From contig CBDAOI010000004.1 of NCBI GenBank assembly GCA_965198005.1, forward strand, positions 256,001-320,000: 64,000 bases of DNA. The letters run 5' to 3'. Below the pieces are notes generated by a model that saw nothing but the letters and a program-made list of their open reading frames with translations, did not search any database and was not told where the DNA came from. The position numbers were made by a program, and so were the translations under genes. Shown here piece after piece: positions 1,081 to 24,375 of this stretch. Each line of letters starts with the position of its first letter. Position 1 is the stretch's first letter. Source of the stretch: Spirochaetia bacterium (lineage in GTDB: Bacteria > Spirochaetota > Spirochaetia > SZUA-6 > Bin103).

Positions 1081-1089
1081 CGCCCGGCC

Positions 1090-3022: not shown

Positions 3023-3150
3023 AGCCAGTCTCTGCGCCAAGTCGGTGGTGCGGGAGTAGAGCACGCGGTAGCCGTTCTCGACCAGGGCCAAGCCGATGGC
3101 GGCCGACAGGTGGCTCTTGCCGCCGCCAGGCGGACCGATCAGGATCAGGT
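3023..3150 (-). pseudogene. istB: IS21 IstB ATPase fragment, downstream half of the split gene
   Basis: NLILIGPPGGGKSHLSAAIGLALVENGYRVLYSRTTDLAQRL contains a Walker A motif. Confidence 0.85.
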
Positions 3151-3217
3151 TGAGGTGGTCCTGGAAAATTGGACAGGAGGTTAAGGTGTATTCGAGGCCA
3201 TGAGGAGGGCCAAGGAG

Positions 3218-3502
3218 ATGGCGACGACACGACGTCGATTCACAGCGGAGTTCAAGGCACGGGTAGTGGTGGAAGCGTTGCGCGGTGACCGCACGATCCA
3301 GGAGATCGGGGCCAAGCACCACGTCCATCCGAACCAGGTGAGCGGCTGGAAACGGCAAGCACAGGATGGTCTGCGGGAACTGTTCGCGGACGGCGCCAGC
3401 CGCCGGCAGGCGGATCACGAGGCGACCATCCACGAGTTGCACGCGAAGATCGGCGAGTTGACGGTGGAGCGGGATTTTTTAGCACGCGGGCTCAAGCTCT
3501 GA
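3218..3502 (+). CDS. IS3 transposase OrfA (HTH)
   Basis: RRRFTAEFKARVV...HPNQVSGWK...LHAKIGELTVERDFL; T-run at the orfA/orfB overlap. Confidence 0.9.
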   Translation: MATTRRRFTAEFKARVVVEALRGDRTIQEIGAKHHVHPNQVSGWKRQAQDGLRELFADGASRRQADHEATIHELHAKIGELTVERDFLARGLKL

Positions 3503-3522
3503 GACGGGACGAACGACGGAAG

Positions 3523-4357
3523 ATGATTGAACGTGACTACGAGAACTTGAGCTTGAGCCGGCAGTGCACCCTGCTTGGACTGAGCCGCTCGGCGTTGTAC
3601 TACACGCCGGTCGGCGAGAGCGCGGCGAACTTGGCGCTGATGCGGCGCATCGATGAGTTGTACCTGCAGTACCCGTTCTACGGCGCTCGGCAGATGGTAC
3701 GCCATCTGGCGCGTGAGGGGGTGACCGTCGGTCGGCACCGGGTGCGGCGGCTGATGCGGCTGCTGGGCTTGGAGGCGATCTACCGCAAGCCGCGGCTCAG
3801 CGTCGCGAACCCGGAGCATCGGGTGTATCCCTATCTGCTGGCGGGGGCTGACGATCGACCGCGCGAATCAGGTGTGGTGCGCGGATATCACCTACATCCC
3901 GGTGCAGGGCGGGTTCCTGTACTTGGTGGCGATCATGGACTGGGCCAGCCGGCGGGTGCTGGCGTGGCGGCTGTCCAACACGTTGGACACCCGGTTCTGT
4001 GTCGAGGCACTGGAGGAAGCGCTGGAGATGTACGGCACCCCGGAGATCTTCAACACCGATCAGGGGAGCCAGTTCACCAGCATCGCGTTCACGGAGCTGC
4101 TGGAGGCAGCGGGCGTGCGCTGTTCGATGGACGGTCGCGGTCGTTGCCTGGACAATGTGTTCATCGAGCGGCTGTGGCGGTCCCTGAAGTACGAAGCGGT
4201 CTACCTGCACGAGTTGGCGGACGGCTTCGTGGCGCAGCGGGTGATCGACGAGTGGATCGAGTTCTACAACGAGGTGCGACCGCACTCGGCACTCGGTGGC
4301 CGGACGCCGTCCGAGGCCTACCGCGGCGTCGCGGCGCCCGGACGGGAGGTGGCGTAG
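3523..4357 (+). pseudogene. IS3 transposase OrfB (DDE) with a +1 frameshift near 3841
   Basis: WCADITY, NTDQGSQF and DNVFIERLWRSLKYE are present; there is an extra G relative to the intact copy 2 (ctgctggcggggg vs ctgctgcggggg). Confidence 0.85.
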
Positions 4358-5255
4358 CGGACATGAGGAGCAGGTGGCAATTGCGGGTTCCGAGGTCAGA
4401 GGGCGAGCGGGTGTGCGATCCGGTGCGGGGAGTTATCCACAATGTCCACAGGATCAAGCCCCCCCTCCCCCAGACCCCCACCCCCTGTTACCGCCACCTG
4501 TTTTTGACAGGGAGGGGTGGGTTGACAGACAACGGAATACACCTTAACTTACCCCCCGGGCTGTCCAACCAACCGGGACCACCTCAGATGAAGCGGCGGC
4601 ATGACGTGGCAGCGCTACCTATCACGCCACCACGATCCGGTCGGGCACCACCGGCCAACCGTCACTACCGGTTGGCCCGCGACATCAGCACAATGGCGAT
4701 ACCTGCGATCCGGCAAAAGGGGCCATTGGGCGATTCAGAGGGAGCGCGAAGGCCCCTTCGACAAGCGGAGTGCAGACCAACCTCGGCCTGCTCTTCGTAG
4801 CGATGCGCCATCCTTCCTTGGTCTCCTGTCGCGCCAGAGCACGACGCCGACTGACGTTTTTGTCAGCGTCGCTCGGCCGCGAGCGCCACTTCTCTGCGAT
4901 GGCCCGTAGTGTCCGGTCACGGGGCCCACGAACGGACGACGCGTCAGTCGTGTGATGAGTTACCCGTGCACTTCGCCGACTGGGTCTGCGGTGCCCGATG
5001 ATGCGCAGACACTACGATGCCAGGCGCTGCTTCGAGTTGACCGGCCAGGTCACGCCCATCCACCGCCCGGCGCTCGTGGACCTGGTCGGCCGCGTTCCGG
5101 GCGCGCCTCCGGAATAGCCAAGTCGCTCCCAGCCCACGACGTCCTGTCGCGGGGCCAGGAGCTGCATGCCACCCGTGGCGCCAGGGAGGGTGCCACGGGT
5201 GGAGGTCACCGTTCCTCCGGCGTGACACCGGGTCCGGAGCCGCATGATCGCTCTC

Positions 5256-6188
5256 TTAAACCGACCTGGCGGCAACGGCACCCAGACGTCCACCACCGCC
5301 CCGCAGCCGCGGGTCGAGCAGGTCCCTTAGTGCATCGCCGAACATGTTAAAAGTGTAAACGACAATCGTCAGGCACAGCCCCGGCCAGAGCGCCAGCCAT
5401 GGCGCCACCTCCATGTACTGACGCCCTTCCCGGCTGAGCAGCCCTCCCCAGCTGGGGATCTCGGTCGGCAGACCGAAACCGAGGAAGCTCAAGGAAGCCT
5501 CAGACATAATCACCGCACCGATGTTGATGCTGAATATGACGATTACGGTAGGCGCAATATTGGGCACGACATGTCGAATAAGTACTCTCAGTTTTGTATT
5601 GCCAATCACCTCTGCCATCTGAAAATAGGCATTCTCCTTTACACCAATAACAGCGCTTCTAATTAATCTCGAGCCGCCGATTCCTCCAGATATCCCCAGC
5701 ACCAGTATTATCTGTAACAGCCCCCGGCCGGCTATGGACATTATGGTCAATAACACCAGAAGTCCTGGGAAGGCCATCCAGGCATCGACGAATCTCTGCA
5801 CGACCAAGTCGAATTTGCCACCGAGGTACCCCGAAGTGCCGCCTATCATGACAGCCACCACAACATTGAGAGCAGTCGCCGCGAGACCGACAGTCAGCGA
5901 AAGACGAGCTCCGTAGATAAGGCGGCTCAACAAATCTCGCCCCAGCTGGTCGGTACCCAGCAGATACTGGGCTGATGGGGCTTTCAGCCTGTCTATCATG
6001 TGCACTTCAAGGAATCCGTAAGGAGCCAGAATATCAGCAAAGATAGCAACCAGAATCAATATCAATATGATAATCCCGCTGGCAGTACCTAGCGGCTTCT
6101 CCCTCCACAGCCTGACTAAGAAACCGAGCGGCCCCGCATATCTCTCTGATTGGCTTACTGCGGATGGTATCCCTTTGGCGTCACTCAT
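5256..6188 (-). CDS. Peptide/nickel ABC transporter permease (DppC/OppC type)
   Basis: LLGTDQLGRDLLSRLIYGAR, EASLSFLGFG and GDALRDLLDPR. Confidence 0.93.
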   Translation of the reverse strand: MSDAKGIPSAVSQSERYAGPLGFLVRLWREKPLGTASGIIILILILVAIFADILAPYGFLEVHMIDRLKAPSAQYLLGTDQLGRDLLSRLIYGARLSLTVGLAATALNVVVAVMIGGTSGYLGGKFDLVVQRFVDAWMAFPGLLVLLTIMSIAGRGLLQIILVLGISGGIGGSRLIRSAVIGVKENAYFQMAEVIGNTKLRVLIRHVVPNIAPTVIVIFSINIGAVIMSEASLSFLGFGLPTEIPSWGGLLSREGRQYMEVAPWLALWPGLCLTIVVYTFNMFGDALRDLLDPRLRGGGGRLGAVAARSV

Positions 6189-6204
6189 GCTGGTTGTTTC
6201 CCCT

Positions 6205-7224
6205 TTAACTATAGCGGACCCTCGGGTCCAAATAGGGATAAATCAGGTCTATCATGAGATTGATTCCCACAACCGCGGTGGCGAACAACAGGTTTACTCC
6301 GGAGACCACCGGGTAGTCTCTTTCACTGAGCGCGATCACCATAAGACGACCCAGACCCGGCAGGTTGAATATGTTCTCCATGATAACCGAGCCACCTACC
6401 AGGATAGGCAACTGCATGCCCACCAGGGTAACAATCGGCATGAATGCATTCTTGAGGGCGTGTCTCATGATGACTACCCTCTCCTTCAATCCCTTGGACC
6501 AAGCCGTCCTGATATAGTCTTGCCTGAGCACCTCCAGCATCATCGTACGCGTCATCCGCATGGTGGCAGCGGACATGGCCGTCCCCAGAATAAGGCTGGG
6601 AATGATGAACACCCGCACATTCCCCAGCGGGTCTTCGGTCAAAGGAATCCACTCCATCGGCGGTGACCAACCCCACCAGATCGCAGGGAAGATCATGACC
6701 ATAATTCCCAGCCAGAAGTTAGGCGTGGCCAGGCCGATGATGGCGACCGAGCGCCCCAGGTAGTCGGCGGGCGTATCCTGGCGAATCGCCGAGTAAATGC
6801 CCACCGGCAGGGCTATCACCAGCCCGATTACGATTGCCATGACGCCAACCTCAATGGTTACCGCCAATCTACCTACTATATGCTCCTCTACCGAAAGAGG
6901 GCTGAACAGAGATTGGCCAAGGGTGCCTTGGAGGAGACCTTTAAAGTGCGACTCACCGGTAAACCAGTCAGGGATCGGCAACACTCCCATCCAGCGTCCA
7001 TACTGCACCCAGACAGGCACGTCTAATCCCATCATACGTAGAAGAGCTTCACGGTCTATCGCCGACTCCGACCACCCGGGGCCACCAGCAATGGAGTCCA
7101 CCCGAGCTTGAATTACGTCTATTACATCACCGGGAAGGAAGCGGACCAGGAGAAAGACCAGGATGGTCAATATGAAGAGGGTGGGAATTATCAGCAATAA
7201 CCTCCTGATGATATAGGCTCTCAT
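6205..7224 (-). CDS. Peptide/nickel ABC transporter permease (DppB/OppB type)
   Basis: MRAYIIRRLL, QDYIRTAWSKGL, ENIFNLPGLG and DLIYPYLDPRVR. Confidence 0.93.
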   Translation of the reverse strand: MRAYIIRRLLLIIPTLFILTILVFLLVRFLPGDVIDVIQARVDSIAGGPGWSESAIDREALLRMMGLDVPVWVQYGRWMGVLPIPDWFTGESHFKGLLQGTLGQSLFSPLSVEEHIVGRLAVTIEVGVMAIVIGLVIALPVGIYSAIRQDTPADYLGRSVAIIGLATPNFWLGIMVMIFPAIWWGWSPPMEWIPLTEDPLGNVRVFIIPSLILGTAMSAATMRMTRTMMLEVLRQDYIRTAWSKGLKERVVIMRHALKNAFMPIVTLVGMQLPILVGGSVIMENIFNLPGLGRLMVIALSERDYPVVSGVNLLFATAVVGINLMIDLIYPYLDPRVRYS

Positions 7225-7253
7225 GTCACACTCCTCGTTGCACTCTCTCCCCC

Positions 7254-7467
7254 GTCATTGCGGTGAAAACCGCAATCCACTCAGACCATCCCCTTGCCCG
7301 GCTGGCGCGGCACTCTCTAAGGTGCGGATCACTCGATAGCACACCGGTAGCCCATCCTTGGTGACGGCCCCATCCCCCCGCCTGCCAAAGCCTTGTGCGG
7401 CCTGCCTGCGCTAAAGCTTCAGCGAAGGCAAGCGGGGAGGCTCATCGCTGACGCTCCTCGCAATGAC
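7254..7467. repeat. REP/REPIN-like palindromic unit
   Basis: Bounded by inverted GTCATTGCG (7254) and CGCAATGAC (7459), with internal short hairpins. Confidence 0.5.
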
Positions 7468-7476
7468 AACGGAAAT

Positions 7477-7513
7477 GGGAGCTGGGAAGCCTGAACCTCC
7501 CAGCTCCCTTTTT
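7477..7513. terminator. Strong hairpin / possible intrinsic terminator
   Basis: 11-bp perfect stem gggagctggga/tcccagctccc followed by T5 on the + strand. Confidence 0.55.
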
Positions 7514-7681
7514 CCGCTGAGGTCAGCCACAAGGGGTGGCCGGGTAGAAGCGCGGACCAGCTCGCTCTTTCGATTGCGAGGCAGGTCACTACGTACCCAA
7601 ACTGGCGGTGCGCCGCCTGCGATAATTGATACGGCCGGTCCTTCCCCGGCTGGAATGCAGTCTTGTCGGCTGCTCGAAACC

Positions 7682-9514
7682 CTAATGACCCATTGCTTCC
7701 TTCAGCGCACTATCAATCCAGAGGCGGGCGAAGACAACATGGTTTTGGGCTGTTCCAAAGCCGCCTTCGGCGTTATAACCTTTCACCCACGGCTGGTGTA
7801 CGCTAAACACTGGGGCCAAAGGTCCCCAGAGGAACCAGTGCTGCTCTACGATGCGCATGTCCATCTCTTTAGTCAGCCTCATCGCCTCCTCTATCGTGGT
7901 AGCCTGTAAATTGGCTTCATAAAAGGCGTCATATTGCGCGTCGGAGACTCCAGAAAAACTCCGTGCAGTGGCCGAGTAAAACTGTGACTGTGCCCACAAT
8001 GGGTAGAACGGATCAGCCTTGATGCCCGCATTCCACCAGGCCATATCATAGTCTGCCGCGCCTATTCGAGCCCCATATTCTGCACCACTTGAAGGTACCT
8101 CAATAACCACATCAACGCCAATCTCACGCCAGTATGCTGCCTGTAATTCTGTCCAGCTCAAATCCTCCGCGGGGTGGAGCACAAACGTGGCCTTGAATCT
8201 AATGCCGTCAGCGCCACGAGCATATCCAGCCTCATCAAGCAACGCTTCTGCCCTTGCCTGGTCATAGGTATAGTATCCCTTAAGCTCTTGGGGCCACTCT
8301 TCAAATGGTACGTGCCACCCCTTGAAGTCCCTGGCGATCAGCCCCCGAGGTATCGTATCCGCCTGACTCTTATAGTAGGTAGCATTCATCGTCTCGAGGT
8401 CCAGTGCCATCTGCAGTGCGTGGCGCACCCTGATGTCGTCCCCCCAGAGCGGCCTGCGCTGGTTCAAACTGACAGAAGTATTCGACCGTTCTGACCACGT
8501 GTGGAACACGAGTTCGGGGTTGGTCCGCATGATGCTCTCTGCCAGGTCTAGAGCCGTTAATTGAGAGGCGCCCGGCCAACCTATGAAATGGATCCTTCCA
8601 CTGCGCAGTCCTGCCAGAACTGTTGCGTTTTCCGTGATAGAGAGGCTCTTTAGCTCGTCAATATACGGCAGGAGGTTCTCCGGGAATTTTTCGTCGTAAC
8701 CCCAGTAGTTGGGATTCTTGGTGAAGGTCATAGAGCTGCCCGGCACCAAGTCAGTTAGCATAAAGGGGCCGGTGCCGACCACGCTCTGCCACTCCCAATC
8801 GGCCCCGTATTCCTCGAGTAGCTCGGGGGGCTGCACAACCGCATTGTTCCAGTCCAAGATAAGGCCCAGGCCACGGAGTCTTTGCTCCTTCAGCTTCATA
8901 ACGACCGTATATTTGTCGGTGGCCACTATCGATTCCCAAGGCAAATCTAGAAGGTTACCTCCTCCTGGGGAAGGTTCGGCTTCACTGAACTCGGTCCCTG
9001 TCAATTTATTTCCCAACAAGCGGTGAAAGGAATGTTCTACATCCTCGGCAGTTAGCTCCCGACCGTTCACCGGCGGCTTATCATGCCAGTGAACGCCCTG
9101 GCGGATGTGGAAGATATAGGTTGTGTCGTCAGGCTGTTCCCAGCTTTCCGTCAGCGCCCCCCGTAGGGCGTATACAGGTGTAAGGTAGCCGCCGACAAAG
9201 GGATATGTGTCCCTATCTATTGCCCAGTTCGTCATGGCCAGTTTCTCTATAACGCCACTGAGAATGTTTAGCGTTCCCCCACCGCCAATATGGGCATCCG
9301 GTCGACGGCTGGCGGGATCCAATCTCATGACCTGGGTCATTGTCCCGCCATACTCTGGCGCGGGCACCACCTGACCTGTGCTGGGGTCGGTCACATACTT
9401 CTTGTCGGCAGCGGCTGCCGGCTCCTCTTCTGCGCCAGCGGCCCAGAGGCCGGTCGCGGTCATTACGAGGACCAACGCAACCGCGAAGGTCTTCGTCATT
9501 CGTACAATATTCAT
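7682..9514 (-). CDS. ABC transporter family-5 substrate-binding protein
   Basis: Signal-like N-terminus, ESWEQPDDTTYIFHIRQGVHWH, VGTGPFML and DIRVRHALQMALD. The start at 9514 follows a GGAG RBS. Confidence 0.9.
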   Translation of the reverse strand: MNIVRMTKTFAVALVLVMTATGLWAAGAEEEPAAAADKKYVTDPSTGQVVPAPEYGGTMTQVMRLDPASRRPDAHIGGGGTLNILSGVIEKLAMTNWAIDRDTYPFVGGYLTPVYALRGALTESWEQPDDTTYIFHIRQGVHWHDKPPVNGRELTAEDVEHSFHRLLGNKLTGTEFSEAEPSPGGGNLLDLPWESIVATDKYTVVMKLKEQRLRGLGLILDWNNAVVQPPELLEEYGADWEWQSVVGTGPFMLTDLVPGSSMTFTKNPNYWGYDEKFPENLLPYIDELKSLSITENATVLAGLRSGRIHFIGWPGASQLTALDLAESIMRTNPELVFHTWSERSNTSVSLNQRRPLWGDDIRVRHALQMALDLETMNATYYKSQADTIPRGLIARDFKGWHVPFEEWPQELKGYYTYDQARAEALLDEAGYARGADGIRFKATFVLHPAEDLSWTELQAAYWREIGVDVVIEVPSSGAEYGARIGAADYDMAWWNAGIKADPFYPLWAQSQFYSATARSFSGVSDAQYDAFYEANLQATTIEEAMRLTKEMDMRIVEQHWFLWGPLAPVFSVHQPWVKGYNAEGGFGTAQNHVVFARLWIDSALKEAMGH

Positions 9515-10662
9515 AACGAACTCCATAGAGTAGTTTCTTGAGAGTATTGCGTAGCGGATTACCGCTCCCTGGCTACTCTCGGGCCCGCAACGCGGACGGC
9601 CAGTCTGAGTCAGATTCACTAAGCGCGCGGCGTGTGACTCAGCGGGTTCACCCCGGCTCACGCCGCGCGCGCGTGCGGTTCTTTGAGTATCATTCGAACC
9701 TCCTTCTTCTCTAGATCTACGTCGGGATCTGCGTTACAATCCCACGCGGGGCGGTGGCCGGCGAAGCAGCGAGTCTGAATGGCCGGCAACGCCGGCGGTG
9801 AGTCTTGCCGGCAGTCAGTCGCAGGCGGGGATCCGGGACGGTTGCGATCGCCGGGAAGGGCGTGGCCGGTCCGCATGCCGGTTTTGCGATGGACCGAGCC
9901 GGCGCAACCGATAGCTATAGCTACGGCGGTGGTGAAGGCGCCCGCGTGCGCGGGGTCGCGTACGCGGCGATCAGCCGGGGCGGTTAGTTGTTTGTCGGTT
10001 CGAAAAAGTGTGTGTGGGGGGGGGGACTCCTCACCATTAAGCAAGCGCGCCGCGAGCTGATTTTCAGCAAATCTCGGCGAGCGGCTGTCAGGGGAACAGA
10101 GTGTCATAAGCGTTGACGTGTTATAGGTCACTCAAGCCCTCCGCAGGTGAGGCACAGCCCTACCCAGATGTAGTCGCGATGTCGCGATTGACTGCATCCC
10201 ACCCTAGAATAACCTCCGCTCCCGTGGACGTCAACCACGAATGATGGCCTGAAGAGACAGTCTGGGGGGCCCACCATTTGTCAACCCCCGCCGCGAAAGG
10301 ATTTCCGGGGAGGGGGGGATGGGCAAGGGTAGGACACGCCGGCTGCGCTGCCGCTAACCGGTGGCAGCGCTGAGTAGCGTTTTCAGCCATCTTTTGCATC
10401 CGTTCAAACCTGAGACTCTTAGTATACCACCTCTGCGGCAACCAATCAACAGAAAAAAACAGGCGAATTGAAGGTTTCTTGAGATTTCTTTCAGGCAGCC
10501 GCGGCAGCCGAGAGCCCCTCGCGGCGCCGACTCGGGCGCATCGCCCCTCCGGAGCCGTCATTCGCCGGCGATGTGGCCGTCCCCAGGCCGTTCACCGTCC
10601 ACGTCGGCCTCACAGCGGCCCGCTGAGGGCCTTCCAGCCCCTCGGGGGTAAGCCTGGGGTAC

Positions 10663-12573
10663 GAGCGCCAGGCTAACTGGCATATGACAGAGGGTGAAAG
10701 TCCCTCGGAACGAAGGAGCAGCCAATCCACGTTTCTCCGCGAGCCGTGCGTTGGCACCTGCGAGGGTGCAGGCGAAGCGTCGGCAGCGGTGCGTGCGGGC
10801 AGAGTTATGGAGCGCCGCAAAATACGACATCTGGAGTGCCGAGACTCTGTACTCGGTCGAAGGCAACACCGGTCGAGCCAGTATGGTGAGGATCGACCGG
10901 GCTCCACGGCGTCGAAGAACTCAGGCACGTACGTACGTCATATACCGGGACCTGGGAGGTCTTCGGGTCGTCCCGGCGAGTCGTCGCCGGGACCGCGGAG
11001 GGAAGGCGTGAGGCTGGACCAAAGATGAACGACCCGAAGGAGTCGGACATGGGCATAGTAGCGGCGAAGCCGGCGAACAAGGGAGCGCAAGCGACTGCGG
11101 AGACGGTGGAGCGAAGGCCCATGACCAACGGGAATTCGCAAGGCCAAAGCACGGGCCGGACGCAGAGTCGGGCAACCGTGACACAGGCGGCCGAGCGGAT
11201 ACGGCAATTCGTAAAGAGAGAACCGCAGGAGAAACTCACTGCGCTGCTGCACCACGTGACGCCGGAAGCGCTGGGTGGCCTATTACGCGCTGAAGCGCGA
11301 AGCGGCCCCGGGGGTGGACGGGATGACGTGGCGGGAGTACGAGACGGGGTTGGAAGTGCCTTGCACGACCTGCACCGGAGAGTACACACAGGAGCGTACC
11401 GAGCGACCCCGGTACGGCGGGTCAACATCGACAAGCCGGACGGAGGCACACGACCGCTGGGGGTGGCCGCGCTGGAGGACAAGATCGTCCAGAAGGCCGT
11501 GGTGGATGTGATCCTGACACCGATCTATGAGGAGGAATTTCTCGGGATCAGCTATGGGTTTCGACCGGGGCGAGGGGCACACGATGCGTTGGACGCACTG
11601 GCCTACGCCATCGAACGGCGCAAAGTGAACTGGATATTGGACGCGGACATTCGCGGCTACTTCGATTCGATCTCGCGGGACTGGTTGATCAGATTCCTGG
11701 AGCATCGGATTGGAGATCGGCGGGTACTGCGGCTGATAAAGAAGTGGCTGCGCGCTGGGGTACTGGAAGAAGGCCGACAGATCGACGCGGGGCGGGGTAC
11801 AGCGCAAGGGTCGGTGATTTCACCGATGCTCGCGAATATATACTTGCACTACGTGTTGGACCTGTGGGTCACCAAGAAGTGGCGGCCGCAGGAGGCGCGC
11901 GGAGACATGATCATAGTGCGCTACGCAGATGACTATGTCGCCGGGTTCGAGCATCGTGACGATGCGGAACGCTTCCTGCGGGAACTGAAGGAGCGATTCA
12001 GAGGCTTCGAGCTGGAACTGAACGCCGACAAGACCCGACTCCTCGAGTTTGGACGGTATGCCGAAAGGAACCGCCTGGCGCGCGGAGAAGGGCGACCGGA
12101 GACGTTCGACTTTCTGGGTTTCACGCATTATTGCAGGAAGGACAGGAAAGGACGCTTCGGGCTGGGGCGGAAGCCAATTCGGAAGCGGATGAATCGTACC
12201 TGAAGAGGATCAAGATCGAGCTCCGCAGACGCATGCATGATGACGTGATGGAAACCGGGCGCTGGCTGGGACGGGTACTGCGCGGATGGCTCAACTACTA
12301 CGCGGTACCCACCAGCTACCGCTACCTGTTCGATTCGTGTGGCGTCTGCGAGGAATCTGGGTAAAGATTCTACGCCGGAGGTCCCAGAAGGACCGATTCT
12401 CCTGGGCTTGGATGCTGGCGATCAGCATCAAGCTGTGGCCCCAACCCCGAATCGTACACTCATGGCCGGACCGGCGATTTGCCGTCAACCACCGAAGGTA
12501 GGAGCCGGATGGTTTAACGACCACGTCCGGATCTGTGCGGGGGGCGCCGGGTAACCGGCGTTCCTACCGCGCC
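10663..12573 (+). mobile_element. Group II intron, bacterial class E-like (copy A)
   Basis: The boundaries are defined by comparison with inverted copy B. Domain V (gagccggatg...gtccggatc, AGC triad) and domain VI lie at 12502-12573; the RT ORF is internal. Confidence 0.93.
11025..12501 (+). pseudogene. ltrA: Group II intron reverse transcriptase/maturase, no endonuclease domain, with several small frameshifts
   Basis: APGVDG, RPLGV, SYGFRPGRGAHDAL, QGSVISP, RYADD and FDFLGF are present. Indels near 11274 and 11359 are seen versus copy B; frame breaks also occur near 12200 and 12330. Confidence 0.88.
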
Positions 12574-12771
12574 CCCCTGCAACACCCGTCAACGCCGATT
12601 CCCGGCACCGCTGGCTCCGTATTGACCGCGCCGCCACCGCCCGCAGCCCAGCCTGGTCGGGTCGCAGCCACCTCCAGGACCAGCTACAGGAGTCTGTCGG
12701 ATTGCGACAGACTCATAGCGGTCGGACGGGATGGGCCAAAAGCGGCGCCCCGGCGGTTTTGGGGCGCTAGG

Positions 12772-14726: not shown

Positions 14727-16274
14727 ATGGTCCTACCTTTCCGGCCCCATGCCTCACCCGGGGTCATCCAAGCGCTGGGGGAACGGGTCCTTCCGCCCTA
14801 CGAAGCGCATTTGAACGATCAGGGCTGTTCACCCGGCCTCTTGCACCGGTCGACAGCCACAGCCCGCCACATGATTGCGTGGCTGACGATCAACGAATCG
14901 GAGGTTGCGACACTCGACATCCGCGGCGTGTACCGCTTCCTGCGCCACGACTGCCACTGCCCAGCCGATGTCCGCAACCAGTCGGCCGCGCCGTCACCAT
15001 GGCACGCGCATCGTTTCCTCGGTTACTTGCTCGAAACCGGGCAGGCCGCGGTTCCCGCCTCGATCGTCACGGGCGGCGGACTGGTGGAAGCGTTTGCGGC
15101 CACCCTGGTGGCTCAAGGCTACCGGGAAGGGACCGTTCGCGGGGTGCGCAGCTCCTGTCGCCACCTCGTCGTCTGGCTGTACCGTTCGGAGCTCGCGTTG
15201 GGAGAGATCGAGGACCGCGTTCTGCAGCGGTTTCTCGACCATCGCTGCGATTGCGAGCACCCTGGATTCTTCGGCCGGTCCAGTGCATTCGCTGGAAGCC
15301 GCCGCACCCAGGCGGAGATCGCCAAGTTTGCCAGCTTCCTGATCGACCGGGATGTGGTTGCCGACTGGCGGGAGCCACTGCCGAAGGCCAGCGGCGGGGC
15401 CCATACCGACGCCTTCCTCCGCTGGCTGCGCCAGCACCGTGGTGTCCGCGACACCACCCTGAAGGCATACCGCCAATCCCTGCAAGCCCTGTTGCCGTTG
15501 CTGGGCGATGCCCCGGGCGCCTATGACGCCGCGTCGATCCGCGCGGTCATCCTGGGCCGTGCACAGTCCGGCTCCCGCAACACGGCCGAGGGCAGTGCCC
15601 TGCGATCGTACCTGCGCTTCTTGGCAGTCCAGGGGCTGTGCCGTCCGGGGCTCGTTGCTGCGGTCCCTACGATCCCGCGTCGGACCGCCTCGCAGTTGCC
15701 CCGGTATGTCGAGCAGGAAGACATCGAGGCCCTGATCGCGAGCTGCGACACCGCCACTTCCATCGGATTACGGGATCGGGCCGTCCTGCTGCTGCTGCTG
15801 CTGGCACGGCTCGCTCTGCGCCCCGGAGAAGTTGCCGCCTTGAGGCTCGACGACATCGACTGGGAGCAGGCGTTGGTCGCGGTCAGCGGGAAGTCGCGCC
15901 GCAGCGCAGCGCTGCCGTTGCCGCAGGAGACCGGGGACACCCTCAAGGACTACATCCTGCGAGCGCGACCGCGCACCGCCTGCCCGACGGTGCTTCCGCG
16001 ATTCCGTGCTCCGCACGGCTGCCTGTCCGCCTCCGCGGTCAGCGCAATCGTGCGCCGGGCCATGCAGCGGGCCGGGATCGACGGCGAGGGCCTCCCGGCC
16101 GCCTACGTGTTCCGTCACTCGAGAGCCACCCATCTGCTGCGCAGCGGAGCTGCGCCGGAGGCCGTCGGCGCCCTCCTGCGCCACCAGTCGGTGAAGACGA
16201 CCGCACTCTACGCTCGCGTGGATGCTCCGATGCTGCTCGCTGTGGCGCAGCCCTGGCCGGGGGAACCCCGATGA
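14727..16274 (+). CDS. RIT tyrosine recombinase A
   Basis: RDRAVLLL, LALRPGEV, VFRHSRAT and LLRHQSVKTTALYA. Confidence 0.9.
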   Translation: MVLPFRPHASPGVIQALGERVLPPYEAHLNDQGCSPGLLHRSTATARHMIAWLTINESEVATLDIRGVYRFLRHDCHCPADVRNQSAAPSPWHAHRFLGYLLETGQAAVPASIVTGGGLVEAFAATLVAQGYREGTVRGVRSSCRHLVVWLYRSELALGEIEDRVLQRFLDHRCDCEHPGFFGRSSAFAGSRRTQAEIAKFASFLIDRDVVADWREPLPKASGGAHTDAFLRWLRQHRGVRDTTLKAYRQSLQALLPLLGDAPGAYDAASIRAVILGRAQSGSRNTAEGSALRSYLRFLAVQGLCRPGLVAAVPTIPRRTASQLPRYVEQEDIEALIASCDTATSIGLRDRAVLLLLLLARLALRPGEVAALRLDDIDWEQALVAVSGKSRRSAALPLPQETGDTLKDYILRARPRTACPTVLPRFRAPHGCLSASAVSAIVRRAMQRAGIDGEGLPAAYVFRHSRATHLLRSGAAPEAVGALLRHQSVKTTALYARVDAPMLLAVAQPWPGEPR

Positions 16275-17197
16275 CGCTGGCCGACCACGTTCTGACCTAT
16301 GCCGCGTTCAAGCGCGCCACCGGCCTGGCCTTCCGGGAACAGGAGCGGCTGCTGGCCAGCTTCGCCCGGCACGCCGAAGCGCGGGGCGAGCGAAGCGTGC
16401 GCGTCGAGACTTGTCTCGACTGGGCGTCGCAGTCTGCGTCACCGCATAAAAAACAACAGCGGCTGCACCTCGTCTGCGGGCTGGCAGCCTACTTGCATGC
16501 CGAGGACGAACGCCACGAGGTGCCCCACCGCGATGCACTCGGTCGCCAGAGGTATCACCGCCCGCCGCCGCGGCTCCTGTCGCTGGAGCAGATCTGCCAA
16601 GTCATGGATGCGGCGCTGGAGCTGCCTCCCGCCGGCTCCATCACCCCCGTGACCTTCCATTACCTGATCGGGCTGGTCGCGGCGACCGGCCTGCGCCGCG
16701 CGGAAGCCACGGGCCTGCGGCTCGATGACGCCGCTGCGGACGGATTGCAGATCCGCCACGCGAAAGGCGGCAAGCAGCGGCTCGTGCCCCTCCACGGGAG
16801 CGTGCGGACCGCACTGAACCGGTATCTGCAGATCCGCGGGCGATGCGGCAGCCCCAGCGACCGTCTCTTCGTGCTCGCCGGCGGCCGGCCCGTCCAACCG
16901 GACTACCTGTCCCATACCTTTGTCCGACTCGCGCGCCAGATCGGCCTGCGTGGGGGCCCGGGCGAGCCCGGCCCGCGCCTGCATGACCTTCGTCACAGCT
17001 TCGCGACGCGTGCCCTGGAGACCGCTGTGTCCGGCGGTCGGGCAGAGACCAGCCGGCACCTGCTCGCGCTGTCCACCTATCTCGGCCATGCCAACGCCAC
17101 TGATACCTACTGGTACCTCGAGGCAACCCCGGTCCTGCTGAACCAAGTGTCGGCAGCCACCGAAAGACTGCATGCGGGGAGGGGGGACGATGACTGA
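16271..17197 (+). CDS. RIT tyrosine recombinase B
   Basis: TGLRRAEA, PRLHDLRHSFA and LSTYLGH...TYWYL; ATGA overlap with A. Confidence 0.92.
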   Translation: MTLADHVLTYAAFKRATGLAFREQERLLASFARHAEARGERSVRVETCLDWASQSASPHKKQQRLHLVCGLAAYLHAEDERHEVPHRDALGRQRYHRPPPRLLSLEQICQVMDAALELPPAGSITPVTFHYLIGLVAATGLRRAEATGLRLDDAAADGLQIRHAKGGKQRLVPLHGSVRTALNRYLQIRGRCGSPSDRLFVLAGGRPVQPDYLSHTFVRLARQIGLRGGPGEPGPRLHDLRHSFATRALETAVSGGRAETSRHLLALSTYLGHANATDTYWYLEATPVLLNQVSAATERLHAGRGDDD

Positions 17198-18014
17198 GCT
17201 CGCAGGGCCGCTGGCGGCCTTCCTCCAGGAGCACCTGCCGCGCGACCGCGGCGCCAGCCCGCATACCGTGGCGGGCTACGCCGCCAGCTTCAAGCTGCTG
17301 GCGGTCTTCGCGGCGGAGCGTCACAAGCTCCGGCCGTGCCGGCTGCAGGTCGGACATCTCGACATCCCGACGCTGCTCGCCTTTCTCAACCACCTCGAGA
17401 CGGACCGCGACAACGGCGTGCGGACCCGCAACGCCCGCTTGTCTGCGATCAAGTCCTTCTTCCGCTACCTGGAGTTCCGCCACCCGGAATGCTTGGATCT
17501 GGCGGCACAAGTGCATGCGCTGCCCCAAAAGAAAGCCGATCTGCCCCCGCTCGACTACCTCGACCGCGACGAGGTCCGGGCGCTGCTCGAGGCCCCCGCC
17601 ACCCACACGGTCACCGGCCTGCGGGATCGCGCCATGCTGTGCCTGGCCTACAATGCCGGCCTGCGCGTCTCGGAACTGGTCGGCCTGGCCCTGGACGACC
17701 TCCAGGCACCGGGACTCGACCGCATCCGGATCCTGGGCAAGGGCCGCCGCGGCCGCGTCCTGCCGCTGTGGAAGGAAACCCGCGGCGCGCTGCGCACTTG
17801 GCTCGGTGTCCGGCCGGACTGCCCCGACCGGCATCTGTTCCTGAACGCCTTCAAAACCGGCCTGACGCGACGCGGCTTCGCCAAGAGACTCGCCTTGCAC
17901 GCCAAGGCCGCGGCACGCGCAGTACCTTCGATCGCGGGCAAGGCCATCACGCCACACGCCCTGCGCCACGCCTGCGCACTTCATACGCGTTATGGGAACC
18001 TGCTCAGCCCCTAA
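17190..18014 (+). pseudogene. RIT tyrosine recombinase C, 3'-truncated (lacks the LGH...Y catalytic tail)
   Basis: YNAGLRVSEL, GKGRR and TPHALRHACA are present, then the frame runs into the terminal repeat. Confidence 0.8.
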
Positions 18015-18099
18015 CCGCTTGCCACGCAACGGCTCATGGCGCCCAGGTTCCCATATTAGCGGGGGGCCCATAATGGCTGTTACCGGAACGTTCCGATAA

Positions 18100-18828
18100 C
18101 AGCCACTTCTTTATCAGCCGCAGCACCCGCCGATCTCCAATCCGATGCTCCAGGAATCTGATCAACCAGTCCCGCGAGATCGTGTCGAAGTAGGCGCGAA
18201 TGTCCGCGTCCAATATCCAGTTCACTTTGCGCCGTTCGATGGCGTAGGCCAGTGCGTCCAACGCATCGTGTGCCCCGCGCCCCGGTCGAAACCCATAGCT
18301 GATCCCGAGAAATTCCTCCTCATAGATCGGTGTCAGGATCACATCCACCACGGCCTTCTGGACGATCTTGTCCTCCAGCGCGGCCACCCCCAGCGGTCGT
18401 GTGCCTCCGTCCGGCTTGTCGATGTTGACCCGCCGTACCGGGGTCGCTCGGTACGCTCCTGTGTGTACTCGCCGGTGCAGGTCGTGCAAGCGCACTTCCA
18501 ACCCCGTCTCGTACTCCCGCCACGTCATCCCGTCCACCCCCGGGGCCGCTTCACGCTTCAGCGCGTAATAGGCCACCCGCAGCGCTTCCGGCGTCACGTG
18601 GTGCAGCAGCGCAGTGAGTTTCTCCTGCGGTTCTCTCTTTACGAATTGCCGTATCCGCTCGGCCGCCTGTGTCACGGTTGCCCGACTCTGCGTCCGGCCC
18701 GTGCTTTGACCTTGCGAATTCCCGTTGGTCATGGGCCTTCGCTCCACCGTCTCCGCAGTCGCTTGCGCTCCCTTGTTCGCCGGCTTCGCCGCTACTATGC
18801 CCATGTCCGACTCCTTCGGGTCGTTCAT
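18100..18828 (-). pseudogene. ltrA: Group II intron RT, N-terminal half (copy B)
   Basis: Open frame MNDPKESD...RVLRLIKKWL, cut by the RIT insertion. Confidence 0.88.
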
Positions 18829-19379
18829 CTTTGGTCCAGCCTCACGCCTTCCCTCCGCGGTCCCGGCGACGACTCGCCGGGACGACCCGAAGACCTCCCA
18901 GGTCCCGGTATATGACGTACGCACGTGCCTGAGTTCTTCGACGCCGTGGAGCCCGGTCGATCCTCACCATACTGGCTCGACCGGTGTTGCCTTCGACCGA
19001 GTACAGAGTCTCGGCACTCCAGATGTCGTATTTTGCGGCGCTCCATAACTCTGCCCGCACGCACCGCTGCCGACGCTTCGCCTGCACCCTCGCAGGTGCC
19101 AACGCACGGCTCGCGGAGAAACGTGGATTGGCTGCTCCTTCGTTCCGAGGGACTTTCACCCTCTGTCATATGCCAGTTAGCCTGGCGCTCATACCCAGGG
19201 CACCCCCCGGAATCCCGCAAAATGCCCGTCAAAGCCGTTTCCCACCACCGCCGACACCGCTGACACCGCGCGGTCCGCCACCCGGCTCCCGTGTGCCACC
19301 TCGAACATCAATCCGAGACCGGCACTGATCAGCGCTTGCAGGTCAGGAACGACGTGAGGTGCGGGCTGCGGAACCCCCC

Positions 19380-19661
19380 TCAGTCGCGCCCATACCCGCG
19401 CGGCGGCTCGACGCTCTCCAGTTCGGCAAGATCAAGCCCGCACATCGCCTCCAGCCGCTGTGCGACCGCGGACTCCTGGAGACTGTCGGGCAAGTGGTCG
19501 AGCCACGCTTGATACTCACCCTGGAGGTCGAGCAGGGTGCCCACCGCATCCTGCCAGCGCTGCGGTCGGGACCTGCGGTCTTGCGGCCTGCGGTACTGCA
19601 CCCGGGGCTGCGCTGCCTTGCGGCGCTCTCGATAGCGCCGTTCCGCGTTACTTACCGCCAC
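19380..19661 (-). CDS. Small helical hypothetical protein, MGE-associated
   Basis: 93 aa with a basic N-terminus, RWQDAVGTLLDLQGEYQAWLDHLP and a PPRGYGRD end; co-oriented downstream of the IS110 gene. Confidence 0.7.
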   Translation of the reverse strand: MAVSNAERRYRERRKAAQPRVQYRRPQDRRSRPQRWQDAVGTLLDLQGEYQAWLDHLPDSLQESAVAQRLEAMCGLDLAELESVEPPRGYGRD

Positions 19662-19828
19662 TGCTCTACTTCCCGTTACGCTCCGTTACGTAACAGGTTA
19701 AAAGTTCGGATTTCCGTGCACCGGTGCCGGTTCGCGCCGAGCAGTCTCACCGCGCCTCCTGCCGGGTCTCCGGTCGCTCCCGTGAGCGGCGGGGACGACG
19801 CTTCCCGCGCCCGGCCCACCTTCCCCCA

Positions 19829-21091
19829 TCAGGCGGTCAGCGGTCGCGGAGCCCGGTGCTGTGGATCAAACTGCGTGCGGTCACGCAGCATCGCGCACGC
19901 CACCGCGAGCAACCGGTCCGCGACCGTACGCAGCGCCCGGCCATGGCGCTGCCCGCGCGCGCGCAGCGCCGCATACCGCTCCCGACTCACCGGATCGTGC
20001 TGGATCGCCACCCGCGCCCAGTGATACATCGCGTTGCTCAGCCGCTGGTTGCAGGCACGGCGCATGCTCACCTGGCAACTCTTCCCCGACCGCTTGGTCA
20101 CCGGCGCCACCCCGGTCAGAATCCGCAACCTGTGGTAGTCTCGCTCAGCCAGCAACTGTGAGGCCTCCGCGAACAGCGTGGCGAGCACGATCCGACCGAC
20201 ACCGGGCATCGAACGCAGGATGACGGCGTCACGCTGCTCTTCTGGTTCACCCGAGTCGTCGGCGGCCACAATCTCGGCCAGCAGTTCGTCGAGCCGGCTG
20301 TGCGCCTGTTTGAGTTGCTGGTCGACCAGCTTCAGCCGGGCGATGACGCTCGCGATGTGCGCCGTAGCCGCCGCTATCGTCCCGCGGCCCACCTCAAGCG
20401 GCTGCTGCCGCAGGATGCGCAGCACACCGGCAGCAGCGTGGCGCCGGATGCGGTTGCGCTTCAGGATGGCCGCGACCGACGCCTTCCGGACCCGCGCTGC
20501 CTCCGCCGGCGTCGGCGCCTTCTCCCACAACTCCAGAACCCAGCCCGCGCCGAGGTCACCGCCCAGCTCGATCAGCTGCGGGTAGTAGCGGCGCAGTTGC
20601 TCGCGCATGCGATTGATCAGCCCGTTGCGTTCCTCCTGCAACTCGGCAGTCAGGCGCGACCATTCCCGCAACTCGATCACCGGCGGTGCCTGCACCTGCA
20701 ACTGACGAAAGCTGCGTCGGTCGGTGCGCAGCGAGTCTGCCAACACCCGCGCGTCGCGCCGGTCATCCTTGGCGCCGGCCACCGTAAACCGGTCACGAAA
20801 TCGATCCAGCTGCTTCGGATTGATCGCGTACACCTGCACCTCCCGCTCCAGCAGCATCTCGACCACCGCGCCATGCGGCACCTCGATCCCCGCGTGCACG
20901 CGCTCCGGGTGCCCGCCGGATAGCTCGTGCAACCACGCGCACAAGTCGGCGATGCCGGCGCCGCTATGGGCCACCTGCCGTTCCGCGACCACCTCCCCGT
21001 CACCCTCAAGCACACAGATCTGATGTTGCTGGGTCGCCCAATCGATACCCACGAACCACTGTTCGGTCTGTTCGGTCTGTTCGGTTGACAT
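19829..21091 (-). CDS. IS110-family DEDD recombinase/transposase
   Basis: WFVGIDWA, GIEVPHG, AKDDRRDA, PGVG and the catalytic-serine motif PVTKRSGK; GGAGG RBS upstream. Confidence 0.95.
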   Translation of the reverse strand: MSTEQTEQTEQWFVGIDWATQQHQICVLEGDGEVVAERQVAHSGAGIADLCAWLHELSGGHPERVHAGIEVPHGAVVEMLLEREVQVYAINPKQLDRFRDRFTVAGAKDDRRDARVLADSLRTDRRSFRQLQVQAPPVIELREWSRLTAELQEERNGLINRMREQLRRYYPQLIELGGDLGAGWVLELWEKAPTPAEAARVRKASVAAILKRNRIRRHAAAGVLRILRQQPLEVGRGTIAAATAHIASVIARLKLVDQQLKQAHSRLDELLAEIVAADDSGEPEEQRDAVILRSMPGVGRIVLATLFAEASQLLAERDYHRLRILTGVAPVTKRSGKSCQVSMRRACNQRLSNAMYHWARVAIQHDPVSRERYAALRARGQRHGRALRTVADRLLAVACAMLRDRTQFDPQHRAPRPLTA

Positions 21092-21094
21092 CCT

Positions 21095-21345
21095 GTCACC
21101 TCCCGAGATTGTGGAGCTCGGCTGCCACGATGTCGTTCCACCCCTGTACTGGTGCTCCGGTGCTCCGGTGCTCCTGGCACCTTCCCACCTGGCACTACTC
21201 CTCACTGGGTATCCATCGCGGCACTCCTACCGGGGCACATGTCCCCCCCGGGCGCTCTACGGCGCGGGGGGCTCAAGGTTGCTCCCGGTAGGCTGCCTTG
21301 CCCGCCTGGGATTCTAGCAGTCCCTGGCGAACTATCTAATCTCTA
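21095..21345 (-). ncRNA. Putative IS110 bridge RNA
   Basis: Structured non-coding leader. Two 9-nt segments match the left arm and complement the right arm of the junction at 21352-21371. Confidence 0.75.
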
Positions 21346-21418
21346 TAAAGGGTACAGGGGGGACTCCTCACCATTTGTCAACCCCCGCGAAACGAATTCT
21401 TGGAACTCCCGCCGGGGG

Positions 21419-21962
21419 GGGCGCAGCGAGGCTAGCTGCTGAACTTGCGGGTGTAAGTCCCGCCGGCGCAAATCCCAGTGTGGCGCCGTAGTTATATCCG
21501 GCAGTCGACAGGGGCGACTCTGACGGCTGAAAGCCCGGAAGTAAACGTACTCAGGGGAGGGCGTGAGCCCGACCGACCAACCTAGGAGGCTAACAACCAG
21601 AAGGGCCGTAGCGAGAGCGAACGGACTAATCGCCGAAAACCTCCCCAGCGGGAAGTTGGTTGCTGGATCTCGGAGTGCCAAGGGTTTCCCCCTCCTACCC
21701 GATGGCCAGTGCTGCTGCGGAAGAAACTGGGAAGTGCACGCGGTAGGCTCCCGGCGGAAGTTGAAGGCGGCAATTCTGGATAGTTCAGCAGTGAAAGCCC
21801 GGAAGGTGTGCTGCTCAGGCAGGATGATCCTCGAATGCCAAGGACCGGACCTATAACCGCTGGATGGCGGGAAGTGGAACGGAGAGCAGCAGACTGGCGG
21901 ATGAGGCCACCAAGCGACGATGGCCGCGACAACATAACGCGGCTGGAGCGAGGGCCTCAGGG
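21419..21962 (+). mobile_element. 5' fragment (about domains I-III) of a second, different group II intron, cut by IS3
   Basis: GGGCG start, gcgggtgtaagtcccgc hairpin and a DIII-like gacaacataacgcggctggagcgagggcc segment; no RT ORF or domain V. Confidence 0.65.
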
Positions 21963-22029
21963 TGAGGTGGTCCTGGAAAATTGGACAGGAGGTTAAGGTG
22001 TATTCGAGGCCATGAGGAGGGCCAAGGAG

Positions 22030-22314
22030 ATGGCGACGACACGACGTCGATTCACAGCGGAGTTCAAGGCACGGGTAGTGGTGGAAGCGTTGCGCGGTGA
22101 CCGCACGATCCAGGAGATCGGGGCCAAGCACCACGTCCATCCGAACCAGGTGAGCGGCTGGAAACGGCAAGCACAGGATGGTCTGCGGGAACTGTTCGCG
22201 GACGGCGCCAGCCGCCGGCAGGCGGATCACGAGGCGACCATCCACGAGTTGCACGCGAAGATCGGCGAGTTGACGGTGGAGCGGGATTTTTTAGCACGCG
22301 GGCTCAAGCTCTGA
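22030..22314 (+). CDS. IS3 transposase OrfA
   Basis: Identical protein to 3218-3502. Confidence 0.9.
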   Translation: MATTRRRFTAEFKARVVVEALRGDRTIQEIGAKHHVHPNQVSGWKRQAQDGLRELFADGASRRQADHEATIHELHAKIGELTVERDFLARGLKL

Positions 22315-22334
22315 GACGGGACGAACGACGGAAG

Positions 22335-23168
22335 ATGATTGAACGTGACTACGAGAACTTGAGCTTGAGCCGGCAGTGCACCCTGCTTGGACTGAGCCGC
22401 TCGGCGTTGTACTACACGCCGGTCGGCGAGAGCGCGGCGAACTTGGCGCTGATGCGGCGCATCGATGAGTTGTACCTGCAGTACCCGTTCTACGGCGCTC
22501 GGCAGATGGTACGCCATCTGGCGCGTGAGGGGGTGACCGTCGGTCGGCACCGGGTGCGGCGGCTGATGCGGCTGCTGGGCTTGGAGGCGATCTACCGCAA
22601 GCCGCGGCTCAGCGTCGCGAACCCGGAGCATCGGGTGTATCCCTATCTGCTGCGGGGGCTGACGATCGACCGCGCGAATCAGGTGTGGTGCGCGGATATC
22701 ACCTACATCCCGGTGCAGGGCGGGTTCCTGTACTTGGTGGCGATCATGGACTGGGCCAGCCGGCGGGTGCTGGCGTGGCGGCTGTCCAACACGTTGGACA
22801 CCCGGTTCTGTGTCGAGGCACTGGAGGAAGCGCTGGAGATGTACGGCAACCCGGAGATCTTCAACACCGATCAGGGGAGCCAGTTCACCAGCATCGCGTT
22901 CACGGAGCTGCTGGTGGCGGCGGGGATACGCTGTTCGATGGACGGTCGCGGTCGTTGCCTGGACAATGTGTTCATCGAGCGGCTGTGGCGGTCCCTGAAG
23001 TACGAAGCGGTCTACCTGCACGAGTTGGCGGACGGCTTCGTGGCGCAGCGGGTGATCGACGAGTGGATCGAGTTCTACAACGAGGTACGACCGCACTCGG
23101 CACTCGGTGGCCGGACGCCGTCCGAGGCCTACCGCGGCGTCGCGGCGCCCGGACGGGAGGTGGCGTAA
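22335..23168 (+). CDS. IS3 transposase OrfB (DDE)
   Basis: WCADITY, TDQGSQF and ERLWRSLKYE in one frame. Confidence 0.93.
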   Translation: MIERDYENLSLSRQCTLLGLSRSALYYTPVGESAANLALMRRIDELYLQYPFYGARQMVRHLAREGVTVGRHRVRRLMRLLGLEAIYRKPRLSVANPEHRVYPYLLRGLTIDRANQVWCADITYIPVQGGFLYLVAIMDWASRRVLAWRLSNTLDTRFCVEALEEALEMYGNPEIFNTDQGSQFTSIAFTELLVAAGIRCSMDGRGRCLDNVFIERLWRSLKYEAVYLHELADGFVAQRVIDEWIEFYNEVRPHSALGGRTPSEAYRGVAAPGREVA

Positions 23169-23397
23169 CGGACATGGGGAGCAGGTGGCAATTGCGGGTT
23201 CCGAGGTCAGAGGGCGAGCGGGTGTGCGATCCGGTGCGGGGAGTTATCCACAATGTCCACAGGATCAAGCCCCCCCTCCCCCAGACCCCCACCCCCTGTT
23301 ACCGCCACCTGTTTTTGACAGGGAGGGGTGGGTTGACAGACAACGGAATACACCTTAACTTACCCCCCGGGCTGTCCAACCAACCGGGACCACCTCA

Positions 23398-23522
23398 GGT
23401 TGGCGCCCTCAGCGAGCCACTGGTCGCCGGCCGTGAGGGCCATCACGTGCGCCTTGGAGACCATGGGAACCACGCTGAAATCGAAATTGGCGAGGGTCTT
23501 GCCGGGTGGCAGGCGCGCCTGG
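23398..23522 (-). pseudogene. istB: IS21 IstB fragment, upstream half of the split gene
   Basis: QARLPPGKTLANFDFSVVPMVSKAHVMALTAGDQWLAEGAN continues in frame into the 3023-3150 fragment. Confidence 0.85.
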
Positions 23523-23613
23523 TTTGCGCGTATTGTCAAGCCCCGTTACATTGGGGAGCGTAACAACCGTGCCGGGCGACACAGAGACTAGGCACGACGT
23601 AAGGACGGTCGAA

Positions 23614-24371: not shown

Positions 24372-24375
24372 GCGC

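Follow-up and report, generated by a model that had tools for sequence, protein, structure and literature searches.

Tn9, in which IS1 is directly repeated, Tn5 (IS50) and Tn10 (IS10) are the classical composite transposons, and in both Tn5 and Tn10 the two insertion sequence (IS) copies are unequal, with one of them degenerate. IS911, IS2 and IS3 move by a copy-out-paste-in mechanism, and the textbook slippery site of the IS3 family is A AAA AAG. In PMC1676026 composite transposons are treated generally, and members of the IS3 family are described as varying in the length of their target duplication. ISApl1-mcr-1-ISApl1 (Tn6330; PMC5821093) and Tn6518 (PMC7104195) also consist of direct IS copies around a cargo; they are short (2.6-8.4 kb), occur in pathogens and carry colistin resistance. 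A circle of one IS plus the cargo was proposed or detected for these elements, in the case of Tn6518 by polymerase chain reaction (PCR; PMC7104195), and one IS copy is expected to be lost or to decay. Here we analyse a locus of a Spirochaetia bacterium (GenBank assembly GCA_965198005.1, labelled G000) at which two copies of an IS3-family element, IS_L on the left and IS_R on the right, enclose a 17.4-kb cargo inside the remnant of an istB gene. The window, i.e. the whole stretch of 64,000 nucleotides under study, corresponds to C4:256001-320000 of this genome (contig CBDAOI010000004.1), and coordinates without a prefix refer to it. The initial annotation of the window described a composite transposon at this locus. 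The observation is accurate to the base and we confirm a textbook composite of an IS3-family element inside a dead IS21 fragment.

As in Tn9, Tn5 and Tn10, one IS is found twice around unrelated cargo and a single duplication of the IS's own length surrounds the whole unit. The locus also shares with the classical composites that one flanking copy is degenerate and the other supplies the transposase, roles which we predict for IS_L and IS_R, respectively. Unlike in those systems, the IS here is an IS3-family member, the cargo consists of an ABC transporter module without ATPase genes plus nested mobile elements and includes no resistance gene, and nothing was found to indicate that the unit moved more than once. 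The arrangement of direct IS copies around a cargo is that of Tn6330 and Tn6518, whose circles were shown by PCR.

A repeat search of the window yielded two long direct repeats with a spacing of ∼18.8 kb, and together with blastn it placed IS_L and IS_R in the same orientation at 99.3% identity. Repeat search, reading of the ends and blastn reproduced to the base the IS3 coordinates that had been proposed (Table 1). Direct reading of all four flanks agreed equally well with the earlier description: IS_L is preceded by GGT and followed by GAT, and IS_R is preceded by GGG and followed by GGT. The IS starts with TGAGGTGGTCC and ends with GGACCACCTCA, i.e. it has inverted-repeat ends of the TG...CA type. 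These terminal inverted repeats are identical in both copies and the outer ends of the composite are intact. The locus thus combines the same IS twice around a cargo, intact outer ends, one duplication of the size typical for the IS and a target that was continuous before the insertion.

The continuity of the target was read from the sequence and then compared with intact homologues. On the minus strand the right relic piece finishes with ...DQWLAEGAN and the left piece opens with (L)ILIGPPGGGKSH, or in a fuller reading of the left flank with (L)ILIGPPGGGKSHLSAAIGLALVENGYRVLYSRTTDLAQRL. When the span is deleted together with one GGT, a single frame runs across both istB pieces, just as the initial annotation had claimed. 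For the target test both pieces were aligned by blastn with seven intact IS21 istB loci from seven related genomes. These loci were picked from a search of the relatives with the right flank, which returned many istB genes ∼80% identical to its first 123 bases. On all seven loci the alignments of the two pieces meet and share 3 bases (for locus L017 the alignment of the right piece ends one base before the end of the piece), with a DNA identity of 77-86% for the left and 79-83% for the right piece. The overlapping triplet is a single GGT in six of the seven homologues, which read ...CAGCAGGTTGGC..., and CGT in the seventh. As the overlap is found at all seven loci and six of them have just one GGT, the pieces once formed one sequence in which GGT was duplicated by the intervening block. 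The same overlap argues against an origin of the two pieces from different IS21 copies, an objection that had been raised beforehand. The N-side piece on its own is weak in Pfam (E 0.2) and the DNA alignment to the homologues was used in its place. By our own arithmetic two 3-mers match by chance in ∼1 of 64 cases assuming equal bases, or in ∼1 of 50 cases in G+C-rich DNA; a base-exact abutment within a conserved gene is much stronger evidence than the matching GGTs.

The target is an internal istB fragment of 245 bp, which covers only positions ∼54-130 of the 238 positions of the profile. A DNA comparison detected neither istA nor any other similarity to IS21 in window 1-3150 or 23398-25400 outside the relic pieces, and a complete istB next to istA is not present at the target. 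Furthermore, blastn found no close DNA copy of the relic elsewhere in the genome. Of the earlier proposal that the transposon split an istB gene with a GGT duplication, the splitting of one istB sequence and the 3-bp duplication stand, whereas the intact gene has to be replaced by a relic.

A genome-wide blastn search with IS_L detected the element four times at full length, along with ten matches that are partial or divergent. Besides IS_L itself the full copies are IS_R (99.3% identity), C4:1029598-1031032 (98.5%) and C3:30212-31659 (97.7%). The solo copy C4:1029598-1031032 is flanked by AGG/AGG, a 3-bp duplication, and C3:30212-31659 is flanked by CAG/CCA and has no duplication. We also considered the latter copy as the scar of an excised circle and rejected it, as these flanks do not fit. 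The duplication survey covered 16 loci of full length: the solo copy of the studied genome and, from genomes of the same family, 15 copies of a related IS with 78-81% identity. Four loci were removed by a filter on the ends, and in one further locus the position of an end was uncertain. The remaining 11 were evaluable and perfect 3-bp duplications were observed in 6 of these. Together with the AGG/AGG of the solo copy, this rate indicates that 3 bp is the normal footprint for this IS, and the 3-bp target duplication attributed to the element in the initial annotation is well founded.

IS_R is apparently intact. Its OrfB matches the NCBIfam profile NF033516 ('IS3 family transposase') with 285.3 bits (cut-off 160) over profile positions 94-368, and its OrfA covers positions 1-81. 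The frame of orfB overlaps orfA in the −1 frame and the overlap contains the heptamer T TTT TTA at 22287-22293. This heptamer is a candidate −1 slippery site, unlike the textbook A AAA AAG, and programmed frameshifting is suggested by an open reading frame (ORF) layout of the family type. The element agrees with the IS3 family (NF033516) in the −1 overlap of orfA and orfB, the HTH and rve DDE domains, the TG...CA ends and the 3-bp duplications. In IS_L an extra G at IS position 690 (window 3840) causes a +1 shift of orfB ahead of the DDE domain. The resulting ORF 3523-4797 retains HTH_21, and the rve domain is absent (Pfam). IS_L therefore looks defective, with an intact pair of OrfA and OrfB in IS_R only. 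The extra G is missing from every public-run contig (Logan contigs) that covers the position. However, rare variants are lost from contigs and the IS occurs in several copies, so that the frameshift is neither confirmed nor refuted by this absence.

The differences between the two copies are confined to the extra G at position 690 and nine substitutions at IS positions 888-1216. All ten are IS_L-specific states among the four aligned full copies. Once the partial copies are added, however, five of these seemingly private states (954A, 964C, 965G, 967G and 1126G) are also found in the partial copy C2:679760-680453. Because of these common states IS_L is a mosaic, with a patch at IS positions 954-1126 that was acquired by recombination or conversion and not by point mutation alone. 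In other respects IS_L and IS_R are sister copies, since 246C and 850T are exclusive to these two (five copies cover position 246 and eight cover position 850).

The inner flanks indicate where the two copies may have been before. Uninterrupted copies of the intron at 21415-21962 read ...cctcaggg/ctcaggagg in 5 of 5 cases and repeats related to the DNA from 4587 onward read ...gcggcc/gatgaagcgg in 6 of 6 cases (the slash marks the position of the IS junction). GGG and GAT are thus native target bases of two unrelated elements, and each inner flank would accordingly be what is left, on one side, of an IS3 insertion that took place earlier and separately. From these flanks we infer the following order of events. 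Two sister IS3 copies would have inserted independently in a donor, one at GAT in a multi-copy repeat and the other at GGG in a group II intron, so that copies in the same orientation bracketed a stretch of DNA. The transposase would then have used the left inverted repeat of IS_L and the right inverted repeat of IS_R as the ends of one element. Presumably via a circle, following the copy-out-paste-in route of the family, the whole block would have been pasted into the IS21 istB fragment by one transposase event rather than by recombination, duplicating the 3-bp target GGT. Before or after its arrival IS_L may have gained the frameshift and the converted patch and thereby become a passive end. 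We consider it probable, with moderate confidence, that the composite moved as a unit after two independent IS3 insertions.

Several observations weigh against such a move. The cargo as a unit occurs once in the studied genome and shows no sign of mobility as a unit. The initial annotation had suggested looking for the same cargo at other loci, and no second copy was found in this genome. Exact searches with a 35-base string across each inner junction gave 0 matches, for IS_L in genome_contigs and for IS_R in metagenome_contigs, where in both cases the studied genome itself may be left out. The expected donor junctions, with GAT to the left or GGG to the right of an IS, are absent from 4 full and 8 partial IS3 copies of the studied genome, whose assembly is estimated to be 90% complete. 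Only 1 of the 4 junctions was seen in independent data, namely in a public-run contig of 368 bases from X13 that runs from 2999 to 3366, across the left outer junction, and shows 0 differences; X13 is possibly the source sample. Contigs of this kind are unable to test long-range linkage across 1.4-kb repeats. Finally, the mosaic structure of IS_L shows that recombination between IS copies has taken place here, and a two-step recombination yields the same final structure and the same flanks as a move in one piece.

Such a recombination would start with a solo IS3 that inserted into the relic and made the GGT duplication. A circle of IS3 and cargo, which had looped out of a composite-like array elsewhere by recombination between its two IS copies, would then have integrated homologously into the resident copy. 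The many IS3 copies and fragments in the genome provide substrates for it. The copy C3:30212-31659 with its CAG/CCA flanks illustrates that IS3-mediated rearrangements occur, although it lacks the expected donor flanks as well. IS_L shares its patch with another copy, and all ten differences between IS_L and IS_R fall within IS positions 690-1216, a pattern that could result from a crossover between copies that differ slightly. However, as the inner flanks come from two unrelated elements, the recombination still presupposes an earlier composite array, and neither a solo-IS allele nor a donor was found. The number of events also differs: two insertions and one move are sufficient for transposition as a unit, compared to at least five events (two insertions, excision, solo insertion and integration) for recombination. 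Transposition as a unit is therefore the most parsimonious explanation, and we regard the two-step recombination as possible but rather unlikely. The initial annotation had named both arrival of the cargo as one unit and recombination into a resident IS3. The position of the whole block between two halves of one istB with a 3-bp duplication is secure, and parsimony favours the move as a unit without decisively separating the two routes.

No empty-site or solo-IS allele was encountered in the studied genome, in the same-genus relatives or in the exact-string scans. The right relic piece had 0 exact matches in genome_contigs and the left relic piece had 0 in metagenome_contigs; such scans detect only identical sequence, and the studied genome itself may again be left out. 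An empty istB or a single-IS3 allele had been suggested as a check in related genomes. None was found, and four same-genus relatives lack the whole 23-kb island in which the composite is located, so these relatives are uninformative on the empty relic site. In the public run X1 the IS ends run on into other sequence, which indicates that the IS also sits elsewhere in other communities.

A third possibility is the formation of a cointegrate, in which a circular donor with a single IS3 was fused to the chromosome by replicative or IS-dimer-mediated transposition, the IS was duplicated in the process and the entire donor came to lie between two direct copies. Such an event predicts direct repeats, a duplication at the outer ends and a pair of sister IS copies, in line with the exclusive 246C and 850T of IS_L and IS_R. 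On the other hand, the IS of the donor would have been bordered by an intron fragment at one end and by an unrelated repeat at the other; it would then not be a simple insertion, which requires an earlier rearrangement anyway, and no replication or partition gene was seen in the 17.4-kb cargo with Pfam and NCBIfam. We consider a cointegrate very unlikely. An artefact, either flanks misjoined across the IS3 repeats or a chance match of GGT and frame, is extremely improbable: assemblers can go astray at 1.4-kb repeats with an identity of 99.3%, the left outer junction alone is confirmed in an outside run and the extra G at 3840 is in no public-run contig, but chance cannot account for a 3-bp overlap that is exact to the base on 7 of 7 istB homologues, a swap needs two further IS3 copies with unassigned flanks and no IS3 copy is found at any contig end of the assembly, the ten differences help assemblers to separate IS_L from IS_R, and even with a swap the relic still holds an IS3 with a GGT duplication.

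Table 1. Coordinates of the composite transposon, its target, its cargo and the adjoining island features in the window
Feature	Position	Strand	Description
IS3-family composite transposon, 20.25 kb	3148-23400		Including both GGT; IS_L, 17.4-kb cargo (4587-21962) and IS_R
Target duplication, left copy	3148-3150		GGT
Target duplication, right copy	23398-23400		GGT
Inner flank triplets	4587-4589; 21960-21962		GAT; GGG
IS_L	3151-4586	+	1436 bp; orfA (3200-3502) intact, orfB frameshifted
IS_R	21963-23397	+	1435 bp, apparently intact; HTH_Tnp_1, HTH_21, rve (Pfam); NF033516
IS_R orfA	22012-22314 (wider span 21997-22314)	+	100 aa; HTH_Tnp_1 (Pfam)
IS_R orfB	22335-23168 (frame open from 22101)	+	277 aa; HTH_21, rve, rve_3 (Pfam)
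istB relic, C-side piece	3026-3150	-	Walker A motif LILIGPPGGGKSH; IstB_IS21 E 1.5e-7, profile 95-130 of 238
istB relic, N-side piece	23398-23520 (end approximate)	-	Reads ...LPPGKTLANFDFSVVPMVSKAHVMALTAGDQWLAEGAN; IstB_IS21 E 0.2 (weak), profile 54-85
Non-coding multi-copy repeat DNA	4587-5255	.	Inner flank of IS_L; begins with GAT
ABC permease	5256-6188	-	BPD_transp_1/OppC_N set (Pfam)
ABC permease	6205-7224	-	BPD_transp_1/OppC_N set (Pfam)
Family-5 solute-binding protein	7682-9661	-	SBP_bac_5 (Pfam)
Two small ORFs	9658-10561	-	No family match (Pfam, NCBIfam)
Group II intron A	10643-12579	+	RF02005, 169.5 bits; RT/maturase ORF 11025-12203 (RVT_1, TIGR04416)
Repeat block with IS1634-family transposase fragment	12573-14359	+	Fragment 13027-13854; NF033559 profile 228-434 of 483
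Group II intron B, 3' part	14360-14596	-	Second copy of intron A type; lacks 596 bp that intron A has
RIT element, 3.5 kb	14597-18099	+	Inserted in intron B; three tyrosine recombinase ORFs, all Phage_integrase
RIT recombinase ORFs	14727-16274; 15638-17197; 17172-18014	+	Phage_integrase domain
Group II intron B, 5' part	18100-19209	-	RF02005 at 18932-19156
IS110-family transposase ORF	19829-21205	-	DEDD_Tnp_IS110, Transposase_20; NF033542, 160.7 bits
Different group II intron, first 548 bp	21415-21962	+	Cut by IS_R; RF02003 at 21445-21616; ends with GGG
VapB/VapC(PIN) pair	1406-2151	-	Left part of island
Truncated, internally deleted IS66-family element	2279-3027	-	DruA/DUF4338-domain end (Pfam DruA); adjoins relic on left
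Two small ORFs right of composite	23856-24371 (aspartyl-protease-like ORF)		Inside island; one of the two aspartyl-protease-like (Pfam)

Most cargo elements recur in many near-identical copies at other places in the genome. The peptide-type ABC importer module at 5256-9661 has no ATPase genes, and no ATPase ORF was found in the adjoining 4587-5255. It is one of dozens of paralogues, the best of which are 85-88% identical. No clear orthologue or home locus was found for it in the relatives, where there are again dozens of paralogues, the best being 88% identical. We observed a very large expansion of such modules, each with a solute-binding protein (SBP) and two permeases at 70-88% DNA identity. 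They are present in dozens of copies in the studied and in same-genus genomes and are often followed by a non-coding repeat that is 87-90% identical and corresponds to window 4919-5230.

Group II intron A occurs in more than 15 copies at 98-99% identity in the genome. The IS1634 fragment lies between 227-bp direct repeats (12772-12998 and 14072-14297). The terminal inverted repeats of the RIT element have a length of 92 bp (14591-14682 and 17988-18079), and six intron bases, equal to 11745-11750 of intron A, are found on both sides of the RIT (14591-18105); 20 bp at 18080-18099 follow the right inverted repeat. From the extent of the repeat we estimated that the IS110 element spans ∼19190-21361. 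Another IS3 copy, at C3:704062-707043, is broken around IS position 1316; the inserted DNA matches the RF02003-type intron at window 21415-21962 over its first 548 bp, and divergent (85%) IS3-like segments are located nearby. The same pairing of this intron type and IS3 is seen at C4:2009516-2010536, so that intron and IS are repeatedly located inside or beside each other.

A block of 6.7 kb at C1:202049-208769 is colinear with window 9835-10662 plus 12573-21361 at 95-99.8% identity. It holds the region of the two unknown ORFs, the IS1634 fragment, a group II intron and the IS110 element, retains the 596 bp missing from intron B, and has neither intron A nor the RIT. As both are absent from this paralogous block, intron A and the RIT may have joined the cargo separately, before or after the move. 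The initial annotation had the ABC transporter, the introns, the RIT and IS110 arriving as one unit, which may not hold for these two. We also examined C1:202049-213052 as a region colinear with a circular form of the cargo. This was rejected as a likely coincidence, since ABC paralogues are densely packed on C1 and the identity of that part is no higher than 81%.

The composite is part of a 23.2-kb island of mobile DNA (window ∼1058-24247) that has ppc on one side and a thioesterase gene on the other. In four same-genus genomes (G001, G003, G005 and G006) the ppc 5' end (window 1 to ∼1054) is followed by the thioesterase region (window 24248 or 24335 to ∼24800) within 3 to ∼330 bp. The composite appears to have landed in an existing pile of mobile DNA. 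On its left, the IS66-family remnant at 2279-3027 corresponds to no more than the final ∼1.05 kb of the full copies (e.g. C4:696023-698721). The full element has a length of 2.7 kb and is present in four copies that are 97-99.7% identical (C4:696023-698721, C4:1601411-1604107, C4:1787103-1789816 and C2:161595-164281). It encodes a DDE transposase of 550 aa (DDE_Tnp_IS66) followed by a 293-aa Druantia DruA/DUF4338-domain protein. Another species of the genus (G001) has parts of this element at 98-99% identity, and a DruA-domain passenger in an IS66-like element may merit a study of its own. Just right of the island we found an ORF for a GmrSD-type restriction endonuclease (GmrSD_N and GmrSD_C; 25390-27306, minus strand).

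The locus reveals no new mechanism; the mobile element is of a known kind, of which it is a clean but ordinary representative. As a natural record of how a large IS3-bounded unit inserted in one piece, the locus is unusually clean: homologues allow the target to be reconstructed to the base, and uninterrupted copies reveal both of the earlier insertion sites. It shows the pile-up and hitch-hiking of mobile elements in a genome crowded with introns and IS, and it marks a 23-kb variable island beside ppc. Its value lies in the annotation of this region, in flagging 1.4-kb repeats that need long-read support and in offering a candidate for natural movement of a 20-kb IS3 composite. A further-reaching view, which we consider doubtful at best, is that the block is a still-mobile IS3 'raft' for site-specific elements (two group II introns, the RIT, IS110 and the IS1634 fragment) and the ABC module, and that such composites drive the expansion of SBP-permease-permease paralogues in the genus. 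If that were true, IS3 composites would be one motor of the expansion of paralogous ABC modules in this genus.

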